Below, in pieces: positions 24,423 to 58,718 of a stretch of 64,000 nucleotides of DNA (position 1 is its first letter; each line of letters opens with the position of its first letter). Source of the DNA: Bacterioplanes sanyensis. GTDB taxonomy: Bacteria > Pseudomonadota > Gammaproteobacteria > Pseudomonadales > Oceanobacteraceae. A program made the position numbers and the translations under genes. Under the pieces are notes generated by a model that had not been told where the DNA came from, made no database searches, and saw only the letters and a program-made list of their open reading frames with translations. The stretch lies in NCBI RefSeq assembly GCF_002237535.1, contig NZ_CP022530.1:4117516-4181515 (forward strand), given 5' to 3'.

Positions 24423-24974
24423 TTATTCACACGTACTGTTACTGGCCGGACGAATCGACAAATATTGCAGAATGTCCGCCTTACCCTGCTGCTGGTTTAA
24501 CCACTGGCGAAACTCATCGGCCTTGGCAAACTGCACTTCACCCAAGCGGTTACGGAAGTTTTCTCTGACACTGGCTTCTTGCTCAGTTAAACGAATCAGG
24601 CGCTGCCAGGCGTCGGTAAATATTCTCGGCAACTGCTGATGCATTTCGCACGATTTCAGCAATGACCACTCACCAGCGTCGAGCCAGGCTTCGTCACACG
24701 TCGCGCACAGCTCCAAGCGATTATCCTGATCGTGACCGATGCGATATTTGCTCATTAAGCGGGCGCATTTGGGGCACAGTTTGGCACCTGCAGAGTCTTC
24801 GGCGGAAAACTCATTGTCCTTCTCAATACTGTGCTGCTCGGTGGTTTGCTGCCAATAACGATAATTCAGCAGCGGTAGCAAGCTGCCACCACACTGCAGG
24901 CATCCCGCTGCGACCAGCCCAGTCTCTAGAGTAACCGGCTGTAACTGGCTGCCCTTGCATTGCGGACACTGCAT
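24423..24974 (-). CDS. Double zinc-ribbon (zf-TFIIB-like) domain protein
   Basis: Two CPxC...C..C units (CPQCKGS...CLQCGG; CPKCARLM...CATCDEAWLDAGEW), which resemble Pfam zf-TFIIB-type bacterial zinc ribbons. AGGAGA RBS. The stop is 9 bp after the rhomboid gene. Confidence 0.6.
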   Translation of the reverse strand: MQCPQCKGSQLQPVTLETGLVAAGCLQCGGSLLPLLNYRYWQQTTEQHSIEKDNEFSAEDSAGAKLCPKCARLMSKYRIGHDQDNRLELCATCDEAWLDAGEWSLLKSCEMHQQLPRIFTDAWQRLIRLTEQEASVRENFRNRLGEVQFAKADEFRQWLNQQQGKADILQYLSIRPASNSTCE

Positions 24975-24983
24975 AATCTTCTC

Positions 24984-25556
24984 CTACTCAATTTCTGTTT
25001 CTGGCTTACCACGACTGAGAGAACTTAAAAAAGCAAATAATCCTCCCGCGACGGCACCCGCGATATGGGCTTCAAATGACACCCCAGGGTGATTCGGAAG
25101 CAAGCCATACACCAAGCCGCCGTAAGCAAACACCACCAGCAACGCCACCATGACATTGACAAAACTGCGTGCGAACAACGCCAGTGCTATTTGCCAGGCC
25201 CAAAGCCCAAAAATCCAGCCGCTGGCGCCAATATGAATGGCCGGCCGAGCAAACAGCCAGACCAAGGCACCAGAGACCACAACAATAAACACACTGGCCA
25301 TCAAGTATTGACGCACCGAATGACGCAAACTGATCAAGCTCAGCATCAGCAGACCGGTCAGGTTGTTAAATAAATGCCACCATTCGCTATGAACAAAAGG
25401 CGCCAACACAATGTGAAACCAGGCGCTGGCTTCGCGTGGCTGGATACCAAAGCGATTCAGCGCCCCACCGACCACGGCGTTTACAGCAAACACCGCAATC
25501 AGTATCAGCGCCAATGAACACAGCAGCAGCAAACGGCGCTTAAGCTGCAACATCAT
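24984..25556 (-). CDS. Rhomboid-family intramembrane serine protease
   Basis: Six TM helices. GASGWIFGLW is the GxSG catalytic Ser motif. HIAGAVAGGL carries the catalytic His. HSEWWHLFNN matches the rhomboid loop. ATGA overlap with the stop of the upstream giant gene. Confidence 0.8.
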   Translation of the reverse strand: MMLQLKRRLLLLCSLALILIAVFAVNAVVGGALNRFGIQPREASAWFHIVLAPFVHSEWWHLFNNLTGLLMLSLISLRHSVRQYLMASVFIVVVSGALVWLFARPAIHIGASGWIFGLWAWQIALALFARSFVNVMVALLVVFAYGGLVYGLLPNHPGVSFEAHIAGAVAGGLFAFLSSLSRGKPETEIE

Positions 25557-28500
25557 GGCTCAGCTGAGCCCTTGGCTGCTGTTGAGGTTTTCGCTCTGTC
25601 AGTCTGGCTTTTTTCAGGCTGGCTTTCTTCAGAGTGGCTTTTGTCGATTTGGCGAGTGCTAGCCAAATCGGTTTCTAACACCCGCAATTGCTCGGATATA
25701 TCGCGCATTTTGCCGTGTGTGCGCAGATCGATTTCGAGCTTTTTATCCATGCTGCGCACCAGCGGGAAAATGCTGTTTTCGATGGTTTCTGCCAGTACTG
25801 CCAGCACTTTATCAATACCAGGCACCGGTTCATTCACCACTTTTACCTTCGGCTGGATTTGTTTTACTGCTTCGGCAAATTGATTCAGACCTTTCAGCAT
25901 GGCTTTGGCGACGATCTCATTTTGACCAGCACTGCTCTGACCCAGTTGTTGAGCGCTGCCGGACAGTGCCTGCACGCCTTCGACCAAATCCGACAGTTGC
26001 GCCACCACTTTGGCACCGGTATCAGCACCGTCGCCGCCCATGGCTTTATTGCGTAAAAAGTCCTTTTTAATTTGTTGCCAGCGCTCGGCTTGTTCTGTGG
26101 TCATGTTGCCACGCAGCTCGGCCAGCTTCAGCAGATTGTCTTCAGCACCAGTGGTCAGCAGTTGCGATTCACCCAGGTAATGATCCGCGATCATTTGCAT
26201 CAGTTCGCGATCATTCATAACGGCGGAGATTTTCTCCGTCATTTTATTCATGTTGCGATAACTGCCCTGCAGCTTAAAGGCAGGCTCAGTGCGATATTTA
26301 TCGTCTTGTGCCGCAGAGGCAATGTACTGCTGGTTAATCTTCAGCACGACTTCCTGCACCACCATCATTTTTTGCAACACGGAAGTCATTTCATTGATTT
26401 CCGCGCCACTGTACTGGTGAGACAAATCGGTGGTGGCGACCTCGCGACCTTTGGCCATATCGATTAACTTATACACATCGTCCATTTCGCGCACCGCCAT
26501 CGGTGCCAGAACCGGGTTAGAGGTCAGCGCGTTTTCGATGTAACTCAGCGCAAACTGCTCATCCATGCCACCTAAGATGTCGCCTAGGTTATAAATATCG
26601 GCACGGTTAGCGAGCATGTCTGGAATCTTAAAGGCTTCGCCCGATTCCGTGTACGGGTTACCCGCCATCACGACACAGAACTTGCGCCCGCGCATGTCGT
26701 AGGTTTTGGTTTTGCCTTTCCAAACACCGTCAATACGACGCGTGCCGTCACACAAGGAGATAAATTTCTGCAAAAACTCTGGATCCGTGTGCTGAATATC
26801 ATCCAGATACAGCATCACATTGTTGCCCATCTCTAACCCGAGGTTGAGCTTTTCCAACTCTTTTCTGGAAGTCGCATCCGGCGCTTGCTGCGGATCTAAT
26901 GACGTCACTTCATGACCCAGCGACGGGCAGTTGATCTTCATGAAGATTAAGCCCAACCGGCTGGCAACGTATTCCATTAATGTGGTTTTACCGTAGCCAG
27001 GCGGCGAGATCATCATCAATAAGCCCATCAAATCGGTACGTTTATTATCACCGATGGTACCCATTTGTTTGGCTAGGTTGTCGCCAATCAAAGGCAAATA
27101 TGACTCGTTAATCAGGCGGTTACGCACAAATGAGCTCAAAGGTTTCGGCTTAAATTCGTCCAACCGCAGTGCTTCGCGTTGTTCTGCGATCACCTGTTGG
27201 CGCACAGCCAAATAGCGATGATACGCAGGCACCACCTCAAAGCGGTGATGCTCCATCTTCAGCAAAAAAGCATCCAGGCCAAAGTGCAACGCTTGCTGCT
27301 CAATCAACGCATGATCGCCCATCAAGCCCGCTACCGATAGCTCCAAATCCACTTCGGTAAAACGTCGTTCAAGGCGCTCATTGGCGTTAATTAATGCCAC
27401 CGCCTCTGGAATGTAACGCTGCAAACCGTCCAGTTGTTTGTCTTTTACCAGCGCTTGCAGCCAGGCTGATGTCAGGTTCCAGCGCTCGGCTGGCCAGCCC
27501 ATCATTTTATCCAGCGCCATCTGATAACGGCGCCAGGTTTCGTCGTCCATCGAACGCTTCAGTTCGTCTACTAACTGAGTGGCGTATTTGCTGCCAATAA
27601 ACTCCAACCGTTCACGCCCCATTTCGGCCACCAGATAGTCGGCAGCGCGCCGGATATCCAGCTCGGTGACCTCAATAGGATGTTGCGCCACAAACTCCTG
27701 CAGCGAGACAAACACTTCTTCCACCAGCAGCTCGACTGCTTCGTTGCTGCGAAATACTGAGCCCATTTGCGCCGCAGACTGAGCACGCTCAGGCCAGGTG
27801 GTAAAACACAAGGTCGCGCGATCTTGCTCGGCGCTTTTCTGACTGCGAGTCAGACCTTTAATATTGGACCAAAACACCTGCGCCAAGCCACGACATAACG
27901 GGTCGTAGCGCAACAAATCAGCACCGTCTAATGCCGGAATCAGTACTTTCAGCAGCAAGACGGCATCATGGTCGTGGATGCCTTTTTCGTATCCTTCCTT
28001 GTAGCGCGGGCTAGCAAACTGACGCACCAACTCCGTCAGTTTGTTATCTTCCAGCAGTGCCGTGCGCAATTGCTGCAGCGATAAACCGTCGCTGTGTTTT
28101 TTTGCCGCTTCGAGAATTAAAAATGCGAGGTATTCAGAGCGATAGACAGCCGGAGTCTCTGACTCCAGGTTCATATCCCAATAATCGCGCAGCGCCAACA
28201 GCTCGGCCTGTTCAATGGGCTCGTAATAATCGGTGCCGGTGAGGTGAATATTCAGCATGCCATCACGCGGAATGATGGTCAGATCCAGCTCCTGAGTATT
28301 AACTGAGAACTTATGACGTGGCCCCAGTTTGATGACATTACCGCCATCTTCATAAATATCGCTTTTGTCTCGTAACGAGCGCAGCGCTTGTTCTTTAATG
28401 GCTTTTAACCGGGCCTCGATATCATCGGCTTTCACCGCCGCATCCAGCTGCCGCAGCTGCTCCACCTGCTCGCGAATCTTCATCACCAGTGCATCAGAGG

Positions 28501-30916
28501 CGAAGTAGGTATTCAGCTCATCTTGCTCGGTGAACTTCAGCGAACGCTTTTCAATGCTACTGAGAATACGACTGGCAGCATCAGACACCGATTGCGCTTT
28601 ACGTTGCAGTTCGTCAATCAGCTGTTGTTTGTGATTTTCAAACGATTCATATACTTCCTCGCGTTTATCCATAATGTCAGCGAGGAATTCATCAAATTCA
28701 CTGTATTGGCTTTCCAGCTCTTCCAGCTGTACCAACAGACGCGACAGTTGCTCATCACACTTTTCTGGCGTATTGGCCATGCCCAGTGCATTGGCAATGC
28801 TCTGCGAGAACAGCTTAAACTGAGCTCCGAATTGCGCTATGGCTTCGGCCGAGCCCAATGATTTTTGCTTATGCTTGGTTTTTGCTTTGCTTTGATTGAG
28901 CTGCGCATAAATCTGCGAAATGGCATCAATGATACGCGTGCGTACCGTTGCATCGTCGACTTTGAGCGTGCCCATTAACTCGGACAGCAGATCCAGACCC
29001 GAAGCGGTGGTTTCGATCACTTCAACCAAGGGCTGCAACTCTGCCATCGTGGTGGCTTGTTCAACACTGTGATTAATGTCATCAATTTTCGCCTGATACG
29101 GCTCCAGCGCTTTATCGTCCGCAAGAAACGCCACAGTGCGCTCGCTCAGCGACGCTTCCAGTGTTTTTAACTCATCGTCCAGCTGTTCAATGGCGGCAAC
29201 ATCGATATAACGCAGCTCGCGAATGGTCATCAAATGACCGCGCTGGCGGCGAATGGCACCTAATGCATCGACGTATTCGGTGGTGGTTTCCCAGCTTTCG
29301 GTACGCACGGTTTGCAGCAGTGCTTGTTGCGACTGCTGCGCTTCGCGCATGGCTTCATCGGATTGCTGGCGGATGCTTTGAACTTTTTCAAATTCATCAA
29401 TCACCAATTCAGCCGTACTGCCAATGTCATGCAGCAGCTCGGCAATGGTGCTGGTTTCTGTTTCTGCCAGCCAATAATGATCGTCAAATGCTTTACGCGC
29501 CGCTTTACTCAACTCTTCATATAACCGCGCAGACACACTTTGCTGGCTGATCATACGCACAACGCTGTACAAGTCCGACACACCGCGCACTAACTCTGCG
29601 TTACCGATACGGCCATAAAAGGTCTGACTGGCTGGTGCCCGACTGGCATGCTCATCGCTTTCATACGGGGTTTGCCAGATTTGCATCGGATGAACGCGAG
29701 TCGGTTCATTTTCGGCAGAAAAGATCACCAACCTGCCATTGTCTGCCAAAGCATAACCATGGGCATACACTGGGTTTTGCAGGCTTTTATCAATCAGGTT
29801 GTACGCCAACAAACACAGCTCGCCATTTTCTGGCTGATAGAAGACGTACAGCATGTCTTCACCGTTGGGGGAGCGCACTTTGCGCTTGAAGCGCAAACCG
29901 TCGACGCCGTCGTCAAACTGCTTTAGCTCACCGCTGCTAAGGTAATACCCCCCAGGGAAAATCAGACCATGATCTTCCGGTAGCTGTACGCAGGAATCAC
30001 CAATGGCATCAATGCGATGGACACTTTCATCCAGTGGGTTGTAAATAAAATGGCGTGCTTGCTCTTCGCGGTAAGGAAGGATTTTCAACAAAATCAGCTC
30101 GCCAATGTGGGCATAGCTGATATCTGCGTCATCCAATGACTGGGTTTTATCTTCTACCGGTTCCTGATAAATACCCAAGCCATCTTCGGTGTTGTTTTCT
30201 ACCTTGATGGTCAGATCGCCACCCACGGTTTCAACGAACAGGGTATCTAAAATATTGATATGCGGATGACGACCATTCACTGTATCATCGCGGGTAGTAG
30301 AGGTCCATTCAAAATCAAAGGCGGGGGGTAACTGAATGTCACGCTCTCCGCGATTGTCCAGATACTCCACCGTTCTCCCATCAGCCGATACCGACCAACG
30401 AAAAACACGAATATCTTCCAAACGCTCGCCGATTTGGAAACCGGCCAACAGCTTGCCTTTTTTTACCGTAAGCTCTACCAGCTTAGTATGCTTGTAATAG
30501 CGATACAGCTCTTCAAAATCATTAACAAACCCAGGGTCGGCTAGAAAGGTGCCCTGGGCTGGTACTTCTACCAGCTCAAACTGTCCGTCATTTTCGGTGA
30601 CGTCAAACAGAGCAAAAACATCGCTTACCTGAGTTTCTTTTTTCAGGCCAATAAATACGTTGTAACCAAACAGCAAGTGGCCACCCACTTGCACCATGTC
30701 CCGCGCCACACAGTTATTTTCAGTGCGTACTCGAGTTCTGGCCACGACTTGCATATCTGAGCTGCCAAACTCGGCGGTACGTGCCTCGTTCAACGCGGAA
30801 ATGGCTTGCTCCAGTTGACTGCCTTGATCCTGCAAACGCTTTTTGATGATGTCGTAAGCACCACCTTCAGCAACGGCATTGTCAACGACGTCCGTAGATT
30901 GCTTTTGCTCTACCAT
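25553..30916 (-). CDS. Giant 1787-aa multidomain protein with a single embedded AAA+ ATPase module
   Basis: Uninterrupted ORF. Walker A ISPPGYGKTTL (DNA about 26985..27010). Walker B VMLYLDDIQ. A MoxR/AAA_5-like sensor and arginine region CVVMAGNPYTESGEAFKIPDMLANRADIY. Long coiled-coil-rich flanking regions. No N-terminal GTPase P-loop. Confidence 0.8.
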   Translation of the reverse strand: MVEQKQSTDVVDNAVAEGGAYDIIKKRLQDQGSQLEQAISALNEARTAEFGSSDMQVVARTRVRTENNCVARDMVQVGGHLLFGYNVFIGLKKETQVSDVFALFDVTENDGQFELVEVPAQGTFLADPGFVNDFEELYRYYKHTKLVELTVKKGKLLAGFQIGERLEDIRVFRWSVSADGRTVEYLDNRGERDIQLPPAFDFEWTSTTRDDTVNGRHPHINILDTLFVETVGGDLTIKVENNTEDGLGIYQEPVEDKTQSLDDADISYAHIGELILLKILPYREEQARHFIYNPLDESVHRIDAIGDSCVQLPEDHGLIFPGGYYLSSGELKQFDDGVDGLRFKRKVRSPNGEDMLYVFYQPENGELCLLAYNLIDKSLQNPVYAHGYALADNGRLVIFSAENEPTRVHPMQIWQTPYESDEHASRAPASQTFYGRIGNAELVRGVSDLYSVVRMISQQSVSARLYEELSKAARKAFDDHYWLAETETSTIAELLHDIGSTAELVIDEFEKVQSIRQQSDEAMREAQQSQQALLQTVRTESWETTTEYVDALGAIRRQRGHLMTIRELRYIDVAAIEQLDDELKTLEASLSERTVAFLADDKALEPYQAKIDDINHSVEQATTMAELQPLVEVIETTASGLDLLSELMGTLKVDDATVRTRIIDAISQIYAQLNQSKAKTKHKQKSLGSAEAIAQFGAQFKLFSQSIANALGMANTPEKCDEQLSRLLVQLEELESQYSEFDEFLADIMDKREEVYESFENHKQQLIDELQRKAQSVSDAASRILSSIEKRSLKFTEQDELNTYFASDALVMKIREQVEQLRQLDAAVKADDIEARLKAIKEQALRSLRDKSDIYEDGGNVIKLGPRHKFSVNTQELDLTIIPRDGMLNIHLTGTDYYEPIEQAELLALRDYWDMNLESETPAVYRSEYLAFLILEAAKKHSDGLSLQQLRTALLEDNKLTELVRQFASPRYKEGYEKGIHDHDAVLLLKVLIPALDGADLLRYDPLCRGLAQVFWSNIKGLTRSQKSAEQDRATLCFTTWPERAQSAAQMGSVFRSNEAVELLVEEVFVSLQEFVAQHPIEVTELDIRRAADYLVAEMGRERLEFIGSKYATQLVDELKRSMDDETWRRYQMALDKMMGWPAERWNLTSAWLQALVKDKQLDGLQRYIPEAVALINANERLERRFTEVDLELSVAGLMGDHALIEQQALHFGLDAFLLKMEHHRFEVVPAYHRYLAVRQQVIAEQREALRLDEFKPKPLSSFVRNRLINESYLPLIGDNLAKQMGTIGDNKRTDLMGLLMMISPPGYGKTTLMEYVASRLGLIFMKINCPSLGHEVTSLDPQQAPDATSRKELEKLNLGLEMGNNVMLYLDDIQHTDPEFLQKFISLCDGTRRIDGVWKGKTKTYDMRGRKFCVVMAGNPYTESGEAFKIPDMLANRADIYNLGDILGGMDEQFALSYIENALTSNPVLAPMAVREMDDVYKLIDMAKGREVATTDLSHQYSGAEINEMTSVLQKMMVVQEVVLKINQQYIASAAQDDKYRTEPAFKLQGSYRNMNKMTEKISAVMNDRELMQMIADHYLGESQLLTTGAEDNLLKLAELRGNMTTEQAERWQQIKKDFLRNKAMGGDGADTGAKVVAQLSDLVEGVQALSGSAQQLGQSSAGQNEIVAKAMLKGLNQFAEAVKQIQPKVKVVNEPVPGIDKVLAVLAETIENSIFPLVRSMDKKLEIDLRTHGKMRDISEQLRVLETDLASTRQIDKSHSEESQPEKSQTDRAKTSTAAKGSAEP

Positions 30917-30986
30917 TCCTTAATCCTTTTTTCCAACTGCTCAGATTTGACCATCGATATGCGGGACAGTAACTTTCACTGCAATC

Positions 30987-31021
30987 GCAGCACCGGGCCT
31001 TTGAAAGCTCTCCGGTGCTGC
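30987..31021 (-). promoter_or_regulatory. Perfect 10-bp stem-loop in the flotillin-to-giant-gene intergenic region
   Basis: GCAGCACCGG...(15 nt)...CCGGTGCTGC, with no U-tract. Could be an attenuator or RNA-processing element modulating downstream expression. Confidence 0.35.
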
Positions 31022-31030
31022 ACAAGCAGA

Positions 31031-32971
31031 TTACTGCTGGGTTTCGTTATTACTACTGGATGATTCCATCACTTTGCTCAGCAAGGCTTGAATGGTATTG
31101 CTCTTGCCAGCAAAACCATCGATGGCTTTACCAATAGACAGCGACTTAGCAAAGTTATCGAAGAAATGATCTTCGCCACCAACGATATCAATTTTGGCTT
31201 TCTGCAAGGCCACCGCCAGTACTTCAGCATTTTCACGGGCAATGTCTTTGCCGGCTTCAATCGAAGCCATGGCTTCTTTCAGTGCAGTTTCCAGACCCAT
31301 GCGATACTCTTCGTGCGAGCGTGCTTCAGCGCTCATGTTATTCATGGCATCAAACTTCTCGACCAAACCATCGGCTTCGGCTTTGTATTGCTCGCGGGTG
31401 ACAGCGGCGTTGGCCATACCAATTTCACGTGCGGCGGTAGCTTCTGAGTTACCTTTGGCAGCAATCACATCCGCTTCTGCTTTACCCGTGCCCAACAAGG
31501 CATCGGCTTCCGCATCGCCTTTGGCTTTGATCACATTGGCTTCGGCCAGGCCTTCTTTTTCGAATGCATCAGCCTTAGCCGATTGCACTTTGGCTTCCGC
31601 CAAACCACGCGCAGCTTGCTCTGCCTGGGTACCTTCAGCCAGTTTTTTCTTAGCATCGGCTTCTTTGGCAGACGCTTCCAGCTCTGCTTGCGCTATAGTC
31701 GTCAACTCCACGGCACGGTGCTTAGCCGAAAGCTCTTTGGCTTCTGCTTCTTTGACTTGCTTAACTTTTTCTTCTTCCGCCAGCGCCTCAGCAGCCAGTA
31801 CTTGCGTTTGTTTAGCACGGTCCGCTTCAGAGACTTCGCGCACTTCTTTAATGCGCTCCTCTTCCACCGCGACGGTTTTATCAACCGCTACACGCTCGCG
31901 CACCACGTTGGCGATTTCTTTGCGCTCGACCTCAATGGCCTTTTCCGCTTCGATTTTCTGGATTTCGACTTCGCGCTCACGCGACACCACTTCCAGATCC
32001 CGTGCACGAGTTACTTTTTCAACTTCGATGGCCACAGCGCGCTGGCGATTTTGCTCGGCTACTTCAATTTCACGCTGCTGGTTTTCACGCTGCACCGCCA
32101 AGTCTTTTTCTACTTGGATGGTGGTTGCCTCTGCCTTGCGACGCTCTTCTTCCTGAACTTTTTTGGTTTCGGCTTCTTCGCGTGCGCGTATGGTAGCGAC
32201 TTCGCGTTCTTGCTTGGCTTCAGCGTCCGATTGCTGACGCTCCAGCTCTAACATGGCTTCGACGGTTTCTACGTTCTTTTTCTTGATCGCCAGTTCTTCG
32301 TCACGTTCCAGGTTGTTGGTGATTACATTCTGGTTGGCGGTCAATTGGGTAATCTTTTTAATACCCTCAGCATCAAGAATGTTGCTGGAGTCTAATGACG
32401 ACTTTGGTGTTTGCTCCAGGTAATCAATAGCGACGTCTTCCAACACATAGCCGTTTAAGTCTTCACCGATCACCTCAATGATTTTGTCACGAAAATCCTG
32501 ACGGTTTTCAAACAGGGCCACAAACTCAATTTGCTTACCCACTGTCTTCAACGCTTCTGAGAACTTGGCGTTAAATAATTCATTGACCGCGGCTTTATCG
32601 GATGCACGGCTAGCACCGATGGATTTGGCAACCTTGAGCACATCTTCAGCGGTTTCATTCACTCGCAGATAGAAAGCGACGGTGATGTCTGCGCGCATAT
32701 TGTCAGCACAGATCAGACCGTCTTTACCTCGTCTGTCTACCTCCAAGGTAATCAGCGAGATTTTCATCAGCTCTTTTTTATAGATGATCGGGTAGACCAA
32801 GGCGCCAGTGAAATGCACCTTTGGCTGAGAGGTCATATCATTGACAATCAGCGCCGTGCCCTGCTCCACCTTATAATAAAAGGCTTTAAACAGCGCAGCC
32901 ATACCCATCAAGATGACGAATACGATACCAACGCCCGTCAGAATTGGCATTAATACAGATAAATCTGCCAT
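31031..32971 (-). CDS. Flotillin-family SPFH/band-7 protein (YqiK/FloT-like)
   Basis: N-terminal TM helix, then an SPFH domain (ALVYPIIYKKELMKISLITLEVDRRGKDGLICADNMRADITVAFYLRVN), then a very long EA-rich coiled coil. Same architecture as E. coli YqiK. Confidence 0.85.
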   Translation of the reverse strand: MADLSVLMPILTGVGIVFVILMGMAALFKAFYYKVEQGTALIVNDMTSQPKVHFTGALVYPIIYKKELMKISLITLEVDRRGKDGLICADNMRADITVAFYLRVNETAEDVLKVAKSIGASRASDKAAVNELFNAKFSEALKTVGKQIEFVALFENRQDFRDKIIEVIGEDLNGYVLEDVAIDYLEQTPKSSLDSSNILDAEGIKKITQLTANQNVITNNLERDEELAIKKKNVETVEAMLELERQQSDAEAKQEREVATIRAREEAETKKVQEEERRKAEATTIQVEKDLAVQRENQQREIEVAEQNRQRAVAIEVEKVTRARDLEVVSREREVEIQKIEAEKAIEVERKEIANVVRERVAVDKTVAVEEERIKEVREVSEADRAKQTQVLAAEALAEEEKVKQVKEAEAKELSAKHRAVELTTIAQAELEASAKEADAKKKLAEGTQAEQAARGLAEAKVQSAKADAFEKEGLAEANVIKAKGDAEADALLGTGKAEADVIAAKGNSEATAAREIGMANAAVTREQYKAEADGLVEKFDAMNNMSAEARSHEEYRMGLETALKEAMASIEAGKDIARENAEVLAVALQKAKIDIVGGEDHFFDNFAKSLSIGKAIDGFAGKSNTIQALLSKVMESSSSNNETQQ

Positions 32972-33002: not shown

Positions 33003-33698
33003 TTAGTCGATTTGAGTGAACTCTTGTTCGGATATCACTCGATAAGCGTTTTCTTCTGTCAGATATTCCAATAGAACGACCCGATCTCCTTTTTTAAAGC
33101 GCTCCTCTGCGCCCGCTCGAACCTTTAAAATCAGCCCTGCGCCACCATCGGCCAACATGGCTTCTCCAAACGCTTGGTCAACACGCGAGGTACGTACAAT
33201 CGCGGTTTGCCCTAATACGTGTTTGCCGGCTTGCTGCTGAGTTTTATGGAAAAATGGTCTTAGTGGTTTAATCACTTGCGCCGTGATCATCACTGCAACA
33301 TATAGAGAGGCAAGAAAGATAGGCACGCCCGCCAGCCACTGCAATAAACCGTGTGGTATTAAGGCAAAGCTGAAGTGCACCAGGTAATAACAAATCAACC
33401 AACCAAACAATGTAATCAGCGAGACGATAATGGTCACTGGGACACCCACCAGACCAAATCGCATTAATAAACCCGCTAATACGTTGGGGCCACCATGCTC
33501 ATGTGCGCTGGATAGCTCTAAATCACCATCCGCTTCCGGTAAATCCACATCCAGCACGTCGATATCTACCAGCCCCAGCACCGCCACCAACCAATACAGC
33601 ACGATCAATGCGAGCATAAAGGTGAAAATGGCCGTGGGAAACGACGCAATATTCTGATAAAAAGGGTTCATTCCCTCAGTGAAAAATACTGCAAACAT
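33003..33698 (-). CDS. NfeD/YqiJ-like membrane protein (OB-fold C-terminus)
   Basis: Multi-TM N-terminus. C-terminal GQTAIVRTSRVDQAFGEAMLADGGAGLILKVRAGAEERFKKGDRVVLLEY is an NfeD-type OB-fold. Sits immediately upstream of the flotillin, as in yqiJ-yqiK. Confidence 0.6.
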   Translation of the reverse strand: MFAVFFTEGMNPFYQNIASFPTAIFTFMLALIVLYWLVAVLGLVDIDVLDVDLPEADGDLELSSAHEHGGPNVLAGLLMRFGLVGVPVTIIVSLITLFGWLICYYLVHFSFALIPHGLLQWLAGVPIFLASLYVAVMITAQVIKPLRPFFHKTQQQAGKHVLGQTAIVRTSRVDQAFGEAMLADGGAGLILKVRAGAEERFKKGDRVVLLEYLTEENAYRVISEQEFTQID

Positions 33699-33818: not shown

Positions 33819-34523
33819 TTATTCAGCTGCTCCGCCGCTTTTTCTAGTTTTAATCCGCGCCAGTATGTCTTCTGAACGGTTACCCTGCACCCGAATACCG
33901 GCTTGCTCTAATTTATTCTGCAAAGACAGCTCAGGGGCTTCCTCTGCCAGTTCGCTGGCGGCTGCCAGCTCAGCATCACGCAAGGCTTGTTTTTCCTTGA
34001 TGCGTTGCAGGGAATCCATCGCCGTGCGTAATTTTGCATGTGATCCACTGTGACGCTGGGCCACAGCGGCTTGCGCGCGGTGCACGCTTTCACTCGCCTT
34101 GACGGTATCCAGCTGTTGTTTTAACCGTTGAATGTTACGCTGGGTTTGCACAATGGCGGTTTTCATTTGCGTAACACTGTCGGCATAGCTGTTGGCCGCC
34201 GCCTGCTCTTGGCTGTGCTGCTGCTCCAGCTCGGCAATTTTCTCTGCCACTTCCAGCGCTAAGGCTTCATCACCTTGTTCCAGCGCTTGCAGGGCGTAGC
34301 CTTCATGCGTCTCAATGTGTTGACGCAGCTGCTCGCTTTTATCCTGCGATACTTTCTGTCGCGCCATCATTTCCGCCAAACTGTTTTTGGATTGATCCAG
34401 TTCGGCGGCCGCTTCGCGCACTTCCTGATCCAAAATGCGCAGCGCTTGGCTGTCGACGATGGCTTCGCCTGCTTCGTTTACACCTCCGCGCAGCGCGGTC
34501 ATCATCTTCGCCCAGATGTTCAT
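33819..34523 (-). CDS. PspA/IM30 (Vipp1) family protein, ESCRT-III superfamily (YjfJ-like)
   Basis: N-terminus MNIWAKMMTALRGGVNEAGEAIVDSQALRILDQEVREAAAELDQSK is the PspA helix alpha0/alpha1 pattern. Coiled coil throughout. Confidence 0.8.
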   Translation of the reverse strand: MNIWAKMMTALRGGVNEAGEAIVDSQALRILDQEVREAAAELDQSKNSLAEMMARQKVSQDKSEQLRQHIETHEGYALQALEQGDEALALEVAEKIAELEQQHSQEQAAANSYADSVTQMKTAIVQTQRNIQRLKQQLDTVKASESVHRAQAAVAQRHSGSHAKLRTAMDSLQRIKEKQALRDAELAAASELAEEAPELSLQNKLEQAGIRVQGNRSEDILARIKTRKSGGAAE

Positions 34524-34537: not shown

Positions 34538-35164
34538 TTAGCCGGCGGCAGCGGTGACGGTTAAAAACTCGTTGTATGCTTCCGTCGCCTGAATCACGTT
34601 GCTGGTAAGCACCTCAATTTCGAACACGACATTACTGAGGATTGAGCTTGCACTCAAGGCACCAAACATATGGTAATAATCCTCTCCGTCAATGTTATCC
34701 AGGCTGATGGTGGATAGCGGCAGATACTTATGGGTGCGTAGCACCGCGTCGTTAAAGCGTGCTTTATCGGTGACGTCACTGGCAGGCCATAGCAGCGACT
34801 CGACAATAATCTGATCGCCGGAAACGGTCAAAAACAGCGGTAAATCACCGTATTCGTGCATGGTGACATGCAAGGCTGGCTCAGCGCCATCGATCATTTC
34901 AATGGCTGCGGTTCCTTGAGCAAACCAATCAGACTGTTGCAGTGCCTGAAACAGGCTTTGGGTTGTCCAGCGCTCTACTTGATGCGTCATGTCCATTTCT
35001 CCTGGTGGCTCAAACATATCGCCACGGCGGCGCAGCTGTTTTTCCACAGCCGCCAAGTGCTTGGCGTTCTCGGGAAGAATCCAGACCTCTTTCTTCACCA
35101 GTCCCTGCTGGCGCAGGCGCCGACGATACTCTCGCTGATAATGTGCCGAAGACTTTGCTTTCAT
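34538..35164 (-). CDS. DUF2170 (YjfI-like) protein with a basic 50-aa N-terminal extension
   Basis: C-terminal about 150 aa (LPLFLTVSGDQIIVESLLWP...YLPLSTISL...GALSASS) resembles E. coli YjfI, which also precedes the PspA-like yjfJ. The N-terminus MKAKSSAHYQREYRRRLRQQGLVKK is Arg/Lys-rich. Confidence 0.55.
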   Translation of the reverse strand: MKAKSSAHYQREYRRRLRQQGLVKKEVWILPENAKHLAAVEKQLRRRGDMFEPPGEMDMTHQVERWTTQSLFQALQQSDWFAQGTAAIEMIDGAEPALHVTMHEYGDLPLFLTVSGDQIIVESLLWPASDVTDKARFNDAVLRTHKYLPLSTISLDNIDGEDYYHMFGALSASSILSNVVFEIEVLTSNVIQATEAYNEFLTVTAAAG

Positions 35165-35180
35165 GGTGCCAAATTACCGC

Positions 35181-35236
35181 ATTACATGTAACAAAGCAAA
35201 CATCACATGTAATACAAAAACCATTACATGTAATAC
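35181..35236. promoter_or_regulatory. Triple palindromic operator ATTACATGTAAT at 21-bp phasing
   Basis: TTACATGTAA at 35182..35191, TCACATGTAA at 35203..35212 and TTACATGTAA at 35224..35233. Extended consensus cATTACATGTAATAC. The first copy is 18 bp upstream of the DUF2170 ATG. Confidence 0.5.
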
Positions 35237-43924: not shown

Positions 43925-46407
43925 TCATGTAAAACGGCAAAATCGGCGAGCAAATAACTCAACACCGCCATCCAAGCACGCAGGGTGTGATTCGGATCGC
44001 GCAGCAAAGCGCCATTGTCGGCGTTGTCCCAATCCAAGCGGCAGTACTCGTCGTTATCGTCATGCGGCTCATTGGCATCGTTATAGAATAAATAATCACT
44101 GGGGGCTGAATTTAATCGCGATTGCCACACTTCTTCGAACAAGGCATACACCTGTGTTTGCTCAGTGTTTAAATCGGTCAGCGGGTTACCCCACAGGCGA
44201 TCAATTAAGCGATTGACTTGCAAGCGCACGCTGGTCGCATTGCTTTGCGGTGTGTCGGTGCTTTCCACCTCGGTGAACAACACACGCTGACTTTGCGGTT
44301 GCTCAAATTCGTTCACCACCAAACTGCACACCATTTCACTCGACATGCGATTGGCCACGGCGTACATCATGGTGTTCAGCTGGCGACCGCGCTCCACCAC
44401 AGTGTCCGAATCAATGCCGCCATAAATGCCGTAATAGGCATCCAACAGCAGCGCATCGTCTTCATTCCAAACATGATGCCAACGCCCGCCCGTTGACGCT
44501 TCCAGTTTCCGATTCAGTTGTTCGGCGGTTAATAACTGGCCGCGGCCCATATCGCTGGCCAACGGCGTACTGCCAGGCACCACAGTGTCGGCGCGAAACG
44601 CCGGGCTAACAGCCATGTCGACCAGCATATCTTTTAGGTTGTAAGCACCATTTCCGGACGCGCCACTGCGCAAGCGCTGCGCGAAGTCGGCAATCATGCG
44701 CTGCTGTTCCTGATACACAGCCAGCCGCTGTGCATAGTCCTGATCCGATGTTTCGGTCGGCGCCGCCAACGGCTCAGCAGCAAACACAGCTGGCCACCAA
44801 AACTGCACGGTACCGCTGGCGAAACGGGCATCGGCGACCATCTGTTGCGCCAGCCACTGCAGGCCCTGTGACTGTTGTGACTGAGGCAGCTCGGCACCGT
44901 TAAAACCCGGTATGCGCATATCGCGATACCACAAATCGCCCTCTTGGTAGAGGCCGCTGTCCTTGTAGGTGTCGGGCAAGGAGTCGTCGCCATCCCAGGC
45001 GTCGCGATACAACCCACTGTCGCCAAAGTTTTGGAATGCTCCGGCCACTGGGTCCATCACCGTATGACAGCCGGTACACGCCGGGTTGTTCATGGTCGGA
45101 TTGTTGTTGTCTGCCAATGCATCTGGATCCATGGAGCGCACCGCCAGCCCTTCGATATCAACACCGAGGAAGAAATAATAGGCCCAGCGCGAGCGCGCGC
45201 GGTTGCGGTTGGTGTCCGTCGATGGATAACGCGCTAGGAACATCTGTGACGACAGCACACCAGCATGCGGCAAAGGCCCAAGAGAGTAGCCGCTGGTAAT
45301 ACGCGCCGGGCGCCAATCGTCCTCATTTTGATCGTTCGCAAAACTAACACCGGTGTTATACACATCATTGGAATACGGATTGACCATGATGTAGTCGGCG
45401 GTCAGCACTTCGGTATAAGGCCGCTCCGAAGTCACTATGTAGCGGATCAACTGCAGAGGCGCCATGGCCAACGCTTCATTGGTGCGTTCCCAGGCTTGGT
45501 TGCGAGCACGTTCTGCCGCCTCCCGTTGCGCTTCGCTGGTGGCGTTGTTGACCGCCTCGTTCAATGGCTGCAAGCGCGCTTCGATATAAGGGAAGCGATC
45601 ACCGCCGTCGTAAAGAAGATCCAGCGCTGGTGTGCGACCGTTGGCCCATTTATTGGTCAACAAGCGATCATTGGCGCCTTCCAGCACAAACTGATCAAAA
45701 CCTTCGCCGGTCATCAGCCCACGAATCACCCGTCGCAATGACTCGTCACTGCCGTCACCGAGTGATTGCACTTCGGCGGCGGTGGGCAAACGTCCAGCAA
45801 ATAGCAGCGCCGCTTTGCGCAAGGTGTCGCTGGCGCCGGCATTGTTGACGCCCTGCCAGACACTGCCGATTTGCTTATCGGGCGCTTCAGGTTCCTCGCC
45901 ATCAGTGCTGCAGCTGACAGGGTCGGTTTGCAACCAAGTGAGCATCGCTTGATGTTCGGCGCTGTTGGGCGAAATCACCGCACCACCACCGTGAGCCACT
46001 TGCCCCAAAGGCTTTTGTACCAGCAAGCCACTGCCATTTGAGGCAATGTAGTCAGACACGCGCTGTAAGTTGGTGCTTAAGGCCGTGCTGTCATTGCCTG
46101 CCTGCAACACCAACCCAGAGCTGGCAGCGATGCCGCCACTTTGATGGCAGGTTAAACAGCTGCCAGACAGCACTGGCTGCCACAGCTGTTCAGCAAAACG
46201 ATCCACCTCGGCGCTACAATCGGTGTTGCTCACGTCGTCTGGCGTTTCTGGCACATCGGGCTGCGGCGTACTGGGTTGATCGGTCGTACCGTCACCCGAG
46301 CCGCCCTCCGTCGCCAACTCGCCATCGTAGTCGTTGCCACCACCACCGCAGGCGGCCAACATCAGTGCTAGTACTGCACCACACCCAATGTGTGTCCACT
46401 GTTTCAT
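43921..46407 (-). CDS. DUF1549/DUF1553 (PSCyt-type) lipoprotein with two CxxCH heme-binding motifs
   Basis: Lipobox MKQWTHIGCGAVLALMLAACGG. The CxxCH motifs are CLTCHQ and CTGCHTV. 828 aa. Partner of DUF1501, as described for Planctomycetes. Confidence 0.7.
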   Translation of the reverse strand: MKQWTHIGCGAVLALMLAACGGGGNDYDGELATEGGSGDGTTDQPSTPQPDVPETPDDVSNTDCSAEVDRFAEQLWQPVLSGSCLTCHQSGGIAASSGLVLQAGNDSTALSTNLQRVSDYIASNGSGLLVQKPLGQVAHGGGAVISPNSAEHQAMLTWLQTDPVSCSTDGEEPEAPDKQIGSVWQGVNNAGASDTLRKAALLFAGRLPTAAEVQSLGDGSDESLRRVIRGLMTGEGFDQFVLEGANDRLLTNKWANGRTPALDLLYDGGDRFPYIEARLQPLNEAVNNATSEAQREAAERARNQAWERTNEALAMAPLQLIRYIVTSERPYTEVLTADYIMVNPYSNDVYNTGVSFANDQNEDDWRPARITSGYSLGPLPHAGVLSSQMFLARYPSTDTNRNRARSRWAYYFFLGVDIEGLAVRSMDPDALADNNNPTMNNPACTGCHTVMDPVAGAFQNFGDSGLYRDAWDGDDSLPDTYKDSGLYQEGDLWYRDMRIPGFNGAELPQSQQSQGLQWLAQQMVADARFASGTVQFWWPAVFAAEPLAAPTETSDQDYAQRLAVYQEQQRMIADFAQRLRSGASGNGAYNLKDMLVDMAVSPAFRADTVVPGSTPLASDMGRGQLLTAEQLNRKLEASTGGRWHHVWNEDDALLLDAYYGIYGGIDSDTVVERGRQLNTMMYAVANRMSSEMVCSLVVNEFEQPQSQRVLFTEVESTDTPQSNATSVRLQVNRLIDRLWGNPLTDLNTEQTQVYALFEEVWQSRLNSAPSDYLFYNDANEPHDDNDEYCRLDWDNADNGALLRDPNHTLRAWMAVLSYLLADFAVLHE

Positions 46408-46607
46408 GCTGGCCTCGCTTGCTCGAAGTTCTTAGACGGATACAGCCAGTATTGACGTCATTTTTCGTGCTGTCCGTAACAGTCAGTAACGGTACTGAGG
46501 GAATAGAGCGATCTGAGAGTTGGGTCACATGGCAACTGTGACATCGAGTCACAGTTGCCAGCCGCACTGGCAAGCGGCGACGACTGACCTACGCTAACAA
46601 CACGAGC

Positions 46608-48158
46608 TTGTTGTCAGGAACAGCCATGTACAGTGTTCGCTTCCGTTTGGCTGCTCAGCTGGTGTTTGTGGTCACCTTGCTGTTGGCTGCGTTCGGTTAT
46701 TACAGTTATCAACAGGCCGAAGCTAACTTAATGGCAGAGTTCGAACGCCAAATTGCAGCCTCGGCCAAACGCACTCAACTGAGCTTGCCAGGTCCGATCT
46801 GGAACTTTAACGAGCAGATGACGCAGTCGGTGATTCAGTCTGAGTTGGCCTATGAGGGCATTATTGCCATCGAGGTCATCAATACCGATGGTGAGCGCAC
46901 ACTGCTGTTCACCCTCAGCGATAACCCCGAAGAACCGATCACCGCGTTGGAAGAGCCACCCGCCCTCGACGATGTGCGCGAGTTTGCCCTGCAATATGAA
47001 GATTACGGCGAAATGAACGACGTTGGCATCGCCAATTACTACGTCGACGCGGCCTTTATTCAGCCCCAGCTGACGCGGCTAATGTGGCGCCAGGTGGCCT
47101 TAGTGGTGGTGTTGGATCTGGTCATTGGCGCCATGTTGTTGATCTTGATGGGGCGCACCTTGATGGGCCCATTGCAGCGCATCACTACTGCCGTGGACGC
47201 TGTTGCCAGCGGCGATGGCGATCTGACGCGACGGTTGCCCACCCCCAGAGCAGTCGAACTGCAACCGCTGAGCCTCGGCATCAACACCTTTATCGAATCG
47301 GTGCAGGACATCGTTCAACAAACCACTCACGACGCCAAAGCGCTGGAAGCGCAAGCCGGTAGCGCGCGCCAGCAAGCAGCCGACACCTCAGGCTACAGCC
47401 AGCAACAGCAAACCTTGCTGACTAACATGCGTTCGGCGAGTGAGCATTTACGCGAGTCCATCGTCGCCATCGATCAGCAAGCGCAATCTGCGCTGGATAA
47501 AATCTCCACCACAGAGCACGCCGCCGATCAGGGGGTGCAAATGATCGCGCAGCTGGTGCGCCGAGTGGATGAGCTGGTTGAGCAAATTGCTGCCGTTAGC
47601 AACAGCGCTAATCAGCTGATTGCTGAGGGCCAGCAAATCAGCGACATTCTTGGTGTTATTCGCTCCATAGCCGAGCAAACCAACTTACTGGCACTCAATG
47701 CCGCCATCGAAGCCGCCCGCGCTGGCGAAGCCGGGCGCGGCTTTGCCGTAGTGGCGGATGAAGTACGCAACCTGTCTGCTCGCACTGAGCAATCAACCGA
47801 CGAAATTGATCAACACATCGGCACCATGCGCCAGGTCAGCAGCCAGTTGGAAGCAGGCCTACATAACTTAAGTGATGCCACCCAAAGCACCGTCAGCCTG
47901 TGCGACGACGCCAACACCTCCATTGCCGCCATCAGCACCGCCAGCTCTGACACCGCCGAATGCAACCGCCAGATCAGCCACACCACACAGGAACAAACCT
48001 CAGCGGTCAGCGATATGAGTACCACCATTGAAGAGGTTTCCGACAGCGCCTCTTCCATGCACCAATTGGCTGTCGACTCGTCAGATAACGCAGAGCAAGT
48101 CAGTCAGCTGGCCGCTTCCGTACTGCGTCAGCTGCAACGCTTCAAAGTCGATTCTTAG
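46608..48158 (+). CDS. Methyl-accepting chemotaxis protein
   Basis: Two TM helices with a periplasmic domain. HAMP domain. Highly conserved signalling domain [37 protein letters not shown]. Confidence 0.85.
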
Positions 48159-48169
48159 GAGAAACACCA

Positions 48170-48891
48170 TGCGTATGCTTATTCTAATCACCAGTCTGAT
48201 CCTGTGGTCGTGCAATAGCCTGGCAGAGACCGTAACCGCCGCCCAAGACCCCTGGCCACCCTTTGTTCAAGAGGGCAATCCTCCCGGTATTTCGGTAGAA
48301 GTGGTGCAAGAAGCGATGAAGACCCAAGGCTACACCGTCGACATGAAACTCACCCCTTGGGCACGTGCCATCGAGGACGTCAAAAACGGCAATGTCGACT
48401 TTCTAATTGGCACCTGGTTCACCCAGGAGCGCTCAGCGTACTTACGCTACAGCGACCACTACGCCATCAACCAAGTTAAGTTCATCACCAAAGCAGACAG
48501 CAGCTTCGAGTACACCGGCATGGACAGTCTGGCGGGAAAATCCGTGGGGATTGTGCGCGGCTACGGCTATGGCGATGAGTTTTTAACCGCCGGGCACTTT
48601 GCGCGCCCGGAGGCAAACAATCTGGTGCTGAACTTGCGCAAACTAATGGCCGGGCGTATTGATATGACACTGGAAGACGAAATCGTCGCGCGTTCGCAAA
48701 TGACCGGCGCTGGTCTGGACGTCAGTCAGTTCCGTTTTACCAGCAACTCATTGTCGGAAAATAAGCTGCATGTTACCTCAGGGCTGGCCAACGCCCGCAG
48801 CGAAGAACTGATTAACGCTTTTAACAAAGGCCTGGCCGCCATCAAAGCCAACGGCACCTTTGATGCCATTATGAAAAAATACGGCATCTAA
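48170..48891 (+). CDS. Orphan periplasmic substrate-binding protein (SBP_bac_3-like)
   Basis: GGAGAAA RBS. Signal peptide MRMLILITSLILWSCNSLA. No permease or ATPase genes nearby. Sits 12 bp after the MCP. Confidence 0.65.
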
Positions 48892-48945
48892 CCGCTCATC
48901 AATACACTGGGATTGCTGCCTGCAGAATCCTGCGTTTCTCAAGCG

Positions 48946-48971
48946 ACGAGCCCACGAAACTGGGCTCGTTT
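48946..48971 (+). terminator. Rho-independent terminator after the SBP gene
   Basis: CGAGCCCA-cgaaac-TGGGCTCG followed by TTTT. Confidence 0.55.
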
Positions 48972-49165
48972 TGCATCCAGCATCCACGATGCAAACAGAT
49001 ACGACTCACTTTCCGCTTCATTCATTGGCGTTAGACGCAAGCCGCCCAAGCGATCACTATGAACGGCCGTCAGGTTAAGTTGATGCCATCTCAAGTGCCG
49101 CCACCGGGCTTTTGCGTTAGAATGACCGCCCGTAAAATTTGCCAGAACGACATGAGGAAGCCCTG

Positions 49166-50428
<1,263 letters not shown>

Positions 50429-50552
50429 GCCGCCTTCCGTCTGAGCGACTGCTCAAACGCCACAGCAGGCCATCCAGCAATGGCCTGCTGTCATACAAAT
50501 TTCACACTCCCTTGTTAGTGTCGCAGGCTCGGACTTTGAGAGCTGCGCCCTG

Positions 50553-50899
50553 ATGGATCACTGGACCCCGATCACCGACACCGAATTGCACACCGTGCTG
50601 CAGCAAATCGAACAGCTGCCCGCCAACCAGCAGCATCTGTGGCGCATGTTACGCCTGCCTTGGCCTGAGCTGTGGCAACAGCATCCCTGGGGGATGAAGG
50701 CTGCGGTTTTTGGGTGGTCGCGGTGGCCGGCAAGCGGTGCTTGTATTACAACGACATCAGCGCACGTTTTTGCCAAAGCAGTTTTGAGCGCTGGGGGCAG
50801 ATAGATCATTTTGACCCCGACGGTCAGAGCCTGGCAGAACAGCTGCAAAACTGGCTCGACCTGCTTAATCAGGTGCAACCCAGCCCGCTTATCAATTAG
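50553..50899 (+). pseudogene. Hypothetical ORF apparently split by a +1/-1 frameshift near 50700-50800
   Basis: Two overlapping same-strand ORFs (50553..50804 and 50672..50899) with no recognisable family. This could be a sequencing error or a decaying gene. Confidence 0.25.
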
Positions 50900-58708: not shown

Positions 58709-58718
58709 CGGGAGCGTC

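Follow-up and report, generated by a model that had tools for sequence, protein, structure and literature searches.

A large MoxR-class ATPase of the BacE type beside flotillin and PspA genes in Bacterioplanes sanyensis: a candidate remodeller of membrane scaffolds

The ATPase gene and its family

We analysed a stretch of 64,000 nucleotides from Bacterioplanes sanyensis (contig NZ_CP022530.1, positions 4,117,516 to 4,181,515), which we call the window and in whose numbering coordinates are given. Seven genes lie together on its minus strand, in the 5' to 3' order BacA/YjfI, PspA/IM30, YqiJ-like protein, SPFH/flotillin, AAA+ ATPase, rhomboid protease and Zn-ribbon protein. The subject of this work is the ATPase, a protein of the BacE type encoded at 25553..30916; all features described below are on the minus strand unless stated otherwise. 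An earlier note, made from the DNA letters, had read here an uninterrupted 5.4-kb open reading frame (ORF) of 1787 amino acids (aa). The ORF list, the translation and an NCBI protein of B. sanyensis that is 100% identical and of equal length, named "DNA repair protein", all confirm this. The ATPase has no transmembrane-like segment (maximum Kyte-Doolittle mean over 19 residues, 1.50) and is predicted to be a large, soluble, cytoplasmic protein.

The ATPase belongs to a populous family. Pfam DUF3686 matches aa 35-481 (E=1.4e-206; 686.7 bits against a cut-off of 25; 447 of 448 profile positions), DUF7902 matches aa 602-686 (E=3e-29, 101.5 bits), and both AAA and AAA_5 are above threshold on the P-loop module. 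More than 5000 homologs have the same Pfam architecture (DUF3686 + DUF7902 + AAA), and it is common to all of the best 120, which show 67-81% identity across different genera. A filter-free search with aa 1-1200 gave 472 clusters at 50% identity (E<=1e-30). Full-length members are 1590-2036 aa long and reach down to 30% identity, and members are named in Bacteroidota, Bacillota (Lachnospiraceae), Actinomycetota, Acidobacteriota, Lentisphaerota and Deinococcota. The protein shows the combination that is expected of the family, DUF7902 and a single C-terminal AAA+ module in one polypeptide of about 1600-1900 aa. The earlier note held that the architecture matches no family that can be named; the Pfam combination, the number of homologs and the correspondence to BacE by gene order contradict this. 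One distant homolog (P0283, 1876 aa) has N-terminal ankyrin repeats added to DUF3686/DUF7902/AAA in a precomputed Pfam list, a hint that the N-terminal end serves as an exchangeable module for protein binding.

By gene order, the ATPase corresponds to BacE (PA14_16190) of the bacABCDEF operon of Pseudomonas aeruginosa. In the BacA paper, bacA to bacF were found in one transcript by reverse-transcription PCR, and a bacA mutant had BacB-BacF at 6- to 13-fold higher levels, among them PA14_16190, the gene after bacD. BacB is the PspA and BacD the flotillin of this operon. The bac operon affects biofilm formation and virulence of P. aeruginosa. We infer that PA14_16190 is PA3728 from the gene order, the gene numbering, the P. 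paraeruginosa locus and phage-infection data; PA3728, annotated "ATPase", is recurrently mutated in cystic-fibrosis isolates. The ATPase has the Pfam architecture of its P. paraeruginosa homolog and 57-58% identity to it over the full length. The two operons share the order BacA-PspA-YqiJ-flotillin-ATPase and TTACATGTAA palindromes upstream of bacA. They differ downstream, where rhomboid and Zn-ribbon genes are present here and the PLD-like BacF in P. paraeruginosa. A literature search on the names bacE and bacF found the BacA paper as the single relevant one, and a search for YqiK, YqiJ and ATPase together found none.

Thus the ATPase is one more ortholog of a widespread, catalogued and experimentally neglected BacE-type family, and it is no new kind of system. 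This analysis adds the assignment to the CbbQ/NorQ class, the family-wide DD in Walker B, the lack of a VWA partner, flotillin/YqiJ rather than PspA as the near-obligatory neighbour, and an apparent mislabelling as a DNA-repair protein. Nearly all homologs are named "DNA repair ATPase", "AAA family ATPase" or "MoxR-like ATPase" in the databases. Taken literally, the first of these names makes the protein a DNA-repair ATPase, and the Pfam description of DUF3686 ('ATPase involved in DNA repair') and the NCBI and UniRef names derived from Pfam speak for this. However, our literature search on DUF3686 found no paper, and no NCBIfam model matches the ATPase. We return to this explanation with the AAA+ module and the gene order, both of which bear on it.

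The AAA+ module

We used two AlphaFold2 (AF2) models, one of the N-terminal half and one of the C-terminal half, made from 102-sequence, multi-phylum alignments; their predicted local distance difference test (pLDDT) was 85.1 and 85.7, respectively. The only alpha/beta P-loop segment in the models is aa 1298-1442. It lies within a single AAA+ module of core and lid, aa 1260-1488 (26453..27139), as the earlier note had supposed. In another PspA-linked family, a second, degenerate AAA+ module was described by Ravi et al. 2024. We rejected a hidden second module in the present protein because the region before the module is all-helical in the AF2 model.

Walker A reads SPPGYGKTT in translation (aa 1304-1312, 26981..27007), which corrects the GPPGYGKTT of the first reading. 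It is identical in 352 of 354 family members and invariant in the 102-sequence alignment. Walker B, first read as LYLDD, is MLYLDD (aa 1368-1373, 26798..26815) and has Asp where a catalytic Glu is usual. The acidic pair is DD in 341 of the 354 members and DE in none, the other 13 being without a motif match, and DD is invariant across the 102 aligned sequences from several phyla. The NP...R sensor region that had been noticed runs from N1420 (GNPYTESG) to a PDMLANR box ending at R1438 (26603..26659) and translates as NPYTESGEAFKIPDMLANR. N1420, P1421 and R1438 are invariant across phyla in the alignment. From these motifs, N1420 is probably the sensor-1 Asn and R1438 a putative arginine finger, and their invariance suggests that hydrolysis matters. 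A beta-hairpin between helix 3 and strand 4 (aa 1394-1407, 26696..26737; strands 514-519 and 522-527 of the C-half model) would, by AAA+ topology, take the pre-sensor-1 position in the model. At the helix-2 position the AF2 model has a conserved loop of 14-18 residues (aa 1330-1347) with no predicted hairpin.

The module could not be classed by PDB sequence searches, since the matches, with the single sequence as with the 102-sequence profile, stayed at the P-loop level (NVL, RuvB, p97; E>=1e-3). Its predicted fold is closest to MoxR members, namely CbbQ and NorQ, and AAA_5 matches the isolated region over positions 2-125 of its 139-position profile (28.5 bits). These results bear out the MoxR/AAA_5-like reading of the earlier note. 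However, the Asp-Glu pair expected in the Walker B of MoxR proteins is replaced by DD, and no VWA/MIDAS partner was found among the seven cluster proteins by Pfam or among the called neighbours of the distant loci. Therefore, we call the ATPase module MoxR-class but divergent, and do not count it as an ordinary member of the MoxR family.

CbbQ (a Rubisco activase; 6l1q) and NorQ (9qh4) share with the ATPase the AAA_5 profile match, a single AAA+ module, Walker A, the sensor-1 Asn, a conserved Arg after strand 4 and, in the model, a beta-hairpin that may be the one before sensor 1. The sequence identity to the module is only 13-16%. CbbQ and NorQ are modules alone, of ~30 kDa, whereas the present protein is six times larger and carries its own propeller-like domain and rod. 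They also have a DE Walker B and work with a separate VWA/MIDAS adaptor (CbbO, NorD), and here there is DD and no VWA gene nearby. NorQ depends on its catalytic Glu, E109. MoxR ATPases work as hexameric remodellers, and an adaptor links them to the particular partner complex. In RavA of Escherichia coli (PMC6987120), which has a LARA domain and forms a cage with LdcI, a MoxR-class module is likewise extended by helical and adaptor parts, and these attach it to a large partner assembly. RavA differs in that it is ~500 aa long, works with the VWA protein ViaA and binds LdcI, and it has no propeller, no long rod and no flotillin context.

An alternative, raised by the family-wide DD, is that the ATPase works as a scaffold or switch gated by nucleotide. 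With ATP bound, its oligomers would attach effectors (rhomboid, PLD-like or Zn-ribbon proteins) to flotillin platforms at stressed membrane, and a slow hydrolysis would reset them. DnaA is an AAA+ protein with a DD Walker B and shows switch-like behaviour. The ~1250 aa of non-catalytic rod and adaptor domains and the varying downstream effectors described below would also suit a switch. Against it, the sensor-1 Asn and the putative arginine finger are invariant, and the closest structural relatives are working motors. We consider such a switch improbable.

Several other classes were compared with the protein. No GTPase domain was detected in the ATPase by Pfam, and the N-terminal large GTPase with G1-G4 motifs of dynamin-like proteins is not there. 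Of the marks of Vps4 and the classical clade, the MIT domain is not found by Pfam, the second region of homology is not seen, and in our reading of the sequence an aromatic pore-loop residue is missing from the loop that follows strand 2 (CPSLGH). The MoxR class of the module likewise argues against a Vps4-type classical module. The split ABC head of SMC, Rad50 and RecN is also lacking: Walker A and Walker B are 60 residues apart in a contiguous module (aa 1304-1373) that is closest to the remodellers CbbQ and NorQ, and neither NCBIfam nor Pfam gave an SMC-type match. This and the merely P-loop-level similarity found in the PDB searches speak against a DNA-repair ATPase. Overall, the view of the earlier note that the protein is not dynamin-like, Vps4 or RavA is supported.

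Domain layout and predicted structure

The structure prediction and Foldseek comparison proposed in the earlier note give a propeller-like beta domain and a helical rod besides the one AAA+ module. The N-terminus is a long helix, aa 7-50 (30767..30898; AF2/DSSP helices 7-17 and 19-50), along which pLDDT by block rises from 43 to 94. It is followed by a divergent beta-propeller-like domain, aa 56-415 (29672..30751), the core of DUF3686, with ~28 strands in the AF2 model that we grouped into approximately seven four-stranded sheets. Foldseek matched this domain to beta-propellers at high probability, with poor geometric fit. The DCAF1 WDR domain gave E=1.5e-6 and a target-normalised TM score of 0.40, and propellers of Trilobed protease and prolyl oligopeptidase were also matched. 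The N-terminal 415 aa are thus helix plus propeller-like domain, consistent with the earlier observation that no N-terminal GTPase can be recognised.

Next is an alpha-helical rod, aa 433-854 (28355..29620), which holds DUF7902 (28859-29113). Its helices reach 58 residues, and its structural matches were generic bundles only (spectrin, plectin, talin). A small beta domain, aa 861-900 (28217..28336), has strands 861-892 in the N-half model and 882-900 in the C-half model. An all-helical domain follows at aa 926-1178 (27383..28141; helices 46-298 of the C-half model, pLDDT >90), and the conservation profile places the most variable internal stretch of the ATPase at aa 1021-1170. Beta strands and a long linker helix, aa 1184-1250 (27167..27367; C-half strands 304-333, helix 334-370), lead into the AAA+ module. 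The ~1200 aa before the module, described earlier as unknown and coiled-coil sequence, are therefore matched by DUF3686 and DUF7902 and modelled as a propeller-like beta domain and helical bundles.

Constraint is strongest, by a wide margin, in the AAA+ core of the protein, where the top-residue fraction is 0.74-0.88. After the lid there is a conserved helical extension, aa 1489-1640 (25997..26452), of helices in the AF2 model, in which a second conservation peak lies at aa 1531-1560 (0.80). The C-terminus consists of a lineage-specific helical tail, aa 1641-1757, and a disordered charged end, aa 1758-1787 (together 25556..25996). In the 102-sequence alignment, the gap fraction of the tail is 0.62-0.84 in four of five 30-residue blocks and 0.48 at aa 1711-1740. 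The last 30 residues have pLDDT <50, and distant family members stop near residue 1620-1650. Hence the "~550 aa" of coiled coil reported after the module is to be replaced: core and lid end at about aa 1488, and they are followed by a conserved helical domain of ~150 aa and a tail of ~147 aa.

Conservation of gene order

The comparison covered 80 loci, mostly gammaproteobacterial, from a collection in which each species is represented by a single genome, and 6 further loci. A flotillin gene preceded the ATPase gene in 67 of 70 loci and a YqiJ gene in 69 of 70, and thus the core partnership is that of the ATPase with flotillin and YqiJ. PspA was upstream in 52 of 69 loci and BacA in 51 of 69. 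Of 77 loci, 29 had a rhomboid gene directly downstream and 16 had a Zn-ribbon gene at a distance of up to 5 kb on the downstream side. This core is often accompanied by PspA, rhomboid, PLD and the Zn-ribbon protein. The typical context of the family, directly after YqiJ-like and SPFH/flotillin genes and often after BacA/CesT-PspA, is complete in the window, which has all four genes.

The order of YqiJ-like, SPFH/flotillin and ATPase genes is kept in no fewer than six phyla. This trio was also found in Natronoglycomyces (Actinomycetota), Deinococcus grandis, and Carboxylicivirga and Flavobacterium (Bacteroidota), and in the latter two it comes after CesT_Tir-PspA. A Lachnospiraceae contig has a gene for a YqiJ-sized protein before the ATPase gene. 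Such associations have been recognised before: Ravi et al. 2024 described 'Betapropeller+Coiled-coil+AAA-ATPase' proteins in CesT/Tir-PspA-YqiJ-flotillin operons, with Dokdonia listed in their Table S3. On the Pseudomonas fluorescens megaplasmid pQBR103 (L085, 1-5875), the trio comes immediately after genes for rhomboid, DUF2491, DUF350, DUF1190 and glutathionylspermidine synthase. Genes of the DUF350, DUF1190 and glutathionylspermidine-synthase kinds mark a second PspA operon class in Ravi et al. 2024, and the pQBR103 locus appears to combine both classes.

The frequent presence of PspA leads to an alternative in which the ATPase is the bacterial counterpart of Vps4, driving disassembly or recycling of PspA polymers with ATP, while flotillin and YqiJ are a membrane platform only. 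PspA is in the same operon here, in the majority of related loci and in the Bacteroidota versions, and as in the Vps4 and ESCRT-III pair, an AAA+ ATPase is encoded beside an ESCRT-III-superfamily protein. Bacterial PspA and Vipp1 are now counted among the relatives of ESCRT-III, and a recent review states that a Vps4-like ATPase 'appears absent in bacteria', which leaves the role vacant. Ravi et al. 2024 suggested ATP-dependent membrane remodelling for associations of PspA with AAA+ proteins. However, approximately a quarter of the gammaproteobacterial loci have no adjacent PspA, yet have flotillin and YqiJ, and the same holds for the Actinomycetota and Deinococcota loci and for pQBR103, so that the link to flotillin/YqiJ is tighter than that to PspA. 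Together with the AAA+ clade, which differs from that of Vps4, and the MIT domain and aromatic pore loop missed above, this dispensability of PspA weakens a Vps4-like role. We consider it unlikely.

The genes further downstream vary. The place after the ATPase gene, taken by rhomboid here, is occupied in P. paraeruginosa by a PLD-like (PLDc_2) gene (L037, 15216-15923), after which come an unknown gene and then recJ; no rhomboid homolog was detected in this P. paraeruginosa locus. In Carboxylicivirga, a PLDc_2 gene lies divergently upstream (L082, 2180-2860). This placement of PLD-like and rhomboid genes suggests that an accessory membrane or lipid enzyme varies between lineages. A Zn_ribbon_TFIIB gene was also seen just downstream of the Carboxylicivirga cluster (L082, 13541-13942).

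The neighbourhood speaks further on DNA repair. The proximity of recJ, ~1.4 kb downstream of the ATPase gene in P. paraeruginosa, would agree with a repair function, but no repair gene is conserved adjacent in the 80 + 6 loci, and genes for membrane scaffolds are conserved instead. The earlier note had stated that membership of a known DNA-repair family would make its membrane-remodelling interpretation unlikely. The family does bear such a name, although it comes with no supporting paper and no conserved repair neighbours, and we find a repair function hardly credible.

An anti-phage or abortive-infection function, in which the ATPase would sense infection and trigger membrane effectors (rhomboid or PLD), was also considered. 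PA3728-PA3732 were up-regulated in all phage-infected P. aeruginosa samples, and the effector-like genes vary downstream, as just described. Induction by phage is, however, expected of any envelope-stress (Psp-type) operon. No PADLOC model matched any of the seven cluster proteins, except for coiled-coil noise on PspA. The ATPase gene is absent from 50,697 phage records, and of 72,556 plasmid records only 13 carry it, most of these being megaplasmids or chromids; with these collections the idea of a mobile element or defence gene proved weak. The high identity among the best 120 matches and the stable gene order across genera are also unlike fast-evolving defence islands. This function is very improbable in our view. 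By falling weight, the alternatives thus rank as the Vps4-like role on PspA, the nucleotide switch or scaffold, anti-phage defence and DNA repair.

Other genes and features of the cluster

The first gene, BacA/YjfI (DUF2170, CesT/Tir-like; 34538..35164), encodes 208 aa and matches Pfam DUF2170 (E=2e-53) and the NCBIfam BacA equivalog (324 bits against a cut-off of 300). PspA/IM30, of the ESCRT-III superfamily, has 234 aa (33819..34523; Pfam PspA_IM30, E=2e-43). The YqiJ/NfeD-like protein, 231 aa (33003..33698; YqiJ_N, E=6e-5), is a multi-pass membrane protein with three to four hydrophobic segments. The SPFH/flotillin-like protein has 646 aa (31031..32971), with one transmembrane-like segment in aa 1-35 and a long Glu/Ala/Lys-rich helix. 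Over its full length it had no Pfam match, even at E=10. When aa 1-226 were scanned alone, Band_7 was above threshold (E=2e-7), which justifies the earlier naming of this gene as flotillin; the C-terminal part gave a weak match to Flot (E=0.087). Presumably, the flotillin is missed at full length because the Glu/Ala/Lys-rich helix triggers the HMMER bias filter, and automated annotation may overlook flotillins of this type. The Bacteroidota flotillin homologs are likewise without a Pfam match. Two plus-strand ORFs inside the flotillin gene, 31194-32156 (320 aa) and 31583-32251 (222 aa), encode low-complexity, Ser/Ala- or Phe/Leu-rich sequence. They are almost certainly artefacts, being the reverse strand of GAA/GCN-rich coding sequence for coiled coil.

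Between the flotillin and ATPase genes there is a spacer of 114 nt (30917..31030). It contains a GC-rich hairpin, and a ribosome-binding site, AAGGA, precedes the ATG by 7 nt. The hairpin was already noticed in the earlier note. Its arms are GCAGCACCGG/CCGGUGCUGC, it is longer by an inner 4-bp stem, and no U-run follows. The spacer has a minimum free energy of -38.3 kcal/mol (z=-2.2 against shuffles). Strong GC-rich hairpins of unrelated sequence occur after flotillin in most related loci (L001-L061; no shuffle control was made there), and in some of them, e.g. L003, L014 and L045, a T-run follows. This recurrence suggests that the ratio of flotillin to ATPase is set here, by partial termination or by a structure that stabilises the mRNA.

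The rhomboid protease, 190 aa (24984..25556; Pfam Rhomboid, E=1e-17), has a start codon that overlaps the TGA stop of the ATPase gene, and the ATGA overlap and the rhomboid identity are as first noted. From this overlap, rhomboid may be translationally coupled to the ATPase. Its sequence contains HxxxN, GASG and AHIAG, motifs that can be interpreted as carrying the catalytic Ser and His. The last gene of the cluster encodes a Zn-ribbon protein of the TFIIB type (183 aa; 24423..24974; Pfam Zn_ribbon_TFIIB, E=1e-7).

Upstream of the bacA homolog there are three palindromes, TTACATGTAAT, seen as three copies of TTACATGT(A/G)AT at 35181-35233 on the minus strand with a spacing of exactly 21 bp. 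Palindrome matches in this upstream region numbered 7 against 1.5 expected, and none of 100 shuffles reached 7. Among 27 related loci there are 24, those of Pseudomonas and Lampropedia included, with at least two ACATGT sites shortly before the bacA homolog, mostly 21-25 bp apart, and 19 of those loci have a perfect 10-bp palindrome around ACATGT (TTACATGTAA or TCACATGTGA). The palindromes look like a conserved operator. The BacA homolog has a basic N-terminal extension of ~50 aa (aa 1-50, YQREYRRRLRQQGLVKKEVWILPENAKHL), with a weak match to the plasmid repression protein UrfF (E=0.006). Possibly the extension recognises the palindromes as a small DNA-binding domain, which would explain why the operon is derepressed in the P. 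aeruginosa bacA mutant. A sigma-54 site was proposed for P. aeruginosa bacA in the BacA paper. A similar sequence here, TGGCAC-N5-AAGCA (35156-35171, over the bacA start), was rejected, because 40 of 100 shuffles match it and it is absent from the 27 related upstream regions.

GC content is 0.48-0.53 around the cluster, 0.55-0.60 over 44001-62000 and 0.47 in 62001-64000. The drop in the last 2 kb of the window may be a compositional boundary.

Discussion

On balance, we lean towards the view that the BacE-type ATPase forms a ring that docks on flotillin/YqiJ and remodels the flotillin/PspA scaffold in an ATP-dependent manner. The analysis shows to which family the sequence belongs, what class of fold is predicted for it, how its motifs are conserved and in what order the genes lie; we infer the oligomeric state, the substrate and the direction of remodelling. 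The ATPase gene would be co-transcribed with the YqiJ/NfeD-like and SPFH/flotillin genes and usually with the BacA-PspA pair. The AAA+ modules would oligomerise into a ring, as those of CbbQ and NorQ do, which fits an invariant arginine, R1438, acting in trans. The propeller-like domain and the rod would take the adaptor role that a separate VWA protein has in ordinary MoxR systems, and dock the ring onto a cytoplasmic flotillin/YqiJ assembly. ATP binding and slow, partner-stimulated hydrolysis, as the DD Walker B suggests, would then remodel the scaffold, so that the flotillin oligomer is assembled, opened or disassembled. This remodelling might hand PspA to damaged membrane or remove it, and might present clients to rhomboid. 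Changes of the scaffold would thereby control the access of PspA, and here of rhomboid, to the stressed membrane. As for the earlier membrane-remodelling interpretation, the neighbourhood of flotillin, PspA, YqiJ and rhomboid does point to a membrane-related role, while remodelling is its conjectural part.

Several points weigh against ATP-driven remodelling of the scaffold. Asp stands for the catalytic Walker B Glu throughout the family, and the protein could be a slow switch or a scaffold instead of a motor. The VWA partner of characterised MoxR systems is absent among the cluster proteins and called neighbours, and that the propeller replaces it is a speculative idea. The hexamer, which would have 200-kDa subunits and 1.2 MDa in all, is hypothetical, and the structures were predicted as two separate halves, without the relative arrangement of the domains. 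In Moraxella boevrei (L076), the ATPase gene is beside clpB, without flotillin. Finally, our literature search found no paper that tests a protein of this ATPase family for activity, oligomer, localisation or substrate.

Known SPFH systems offer a comparison. SPFH proteins form cup-like oligomers on membranes, as summarised in a review, and in Bacillus subtilis PspA is brought to the membrane by an SPFH protein together with two membrane proteins. A mitochondrial hub of SLP2, PARL and YME1L was described by Wai et al. 2016 (PMC5283581). As in the hubs HflK/C-FtsH and SLP2-PARL-YME1L, an SPFH scaffold, an AAA+ ATPase and a rhomboid are encoded together in the present cluster. The ATPase differs from those of the hubs in being soluble, of the MoxR class and without a protease domain. 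FtsH and YME1L are membrane-anchored AAA+ proteases of the classical clade. The likeness would be one of functional analogy.

A bolder form of the remodelling view is that the family is the missing ATP-driven machine, a 1.2-MDa MoxR-type ring that, with its own propeller and rod as arms, grips the cytoplasmic flotillin cage, PspA polymers or both, and assembles or disassembles them on the stressed membrane. We put this forward as a tentative and rather doubtful possibility. To our knowledge, bacterial flotillins have no energy-consuming partner except FtsH. An ATPase that is conserved in an operon with flotillin and PspA across many phyla is thus an obvious candidate for the missing ATPase.

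If this is true, the family would be a functional, non-homologous counterpart of Vps4 and of the mitochondrial SPFH-AAA+-rhomboid hubs, and the family-wide DD in Walker B would mark a partner-triggered firing mechanism. The family is genetically tractable in P. aeruginosa, and thousands of genomes bear its apparently misleading label, 'DNA repair ATPase'.

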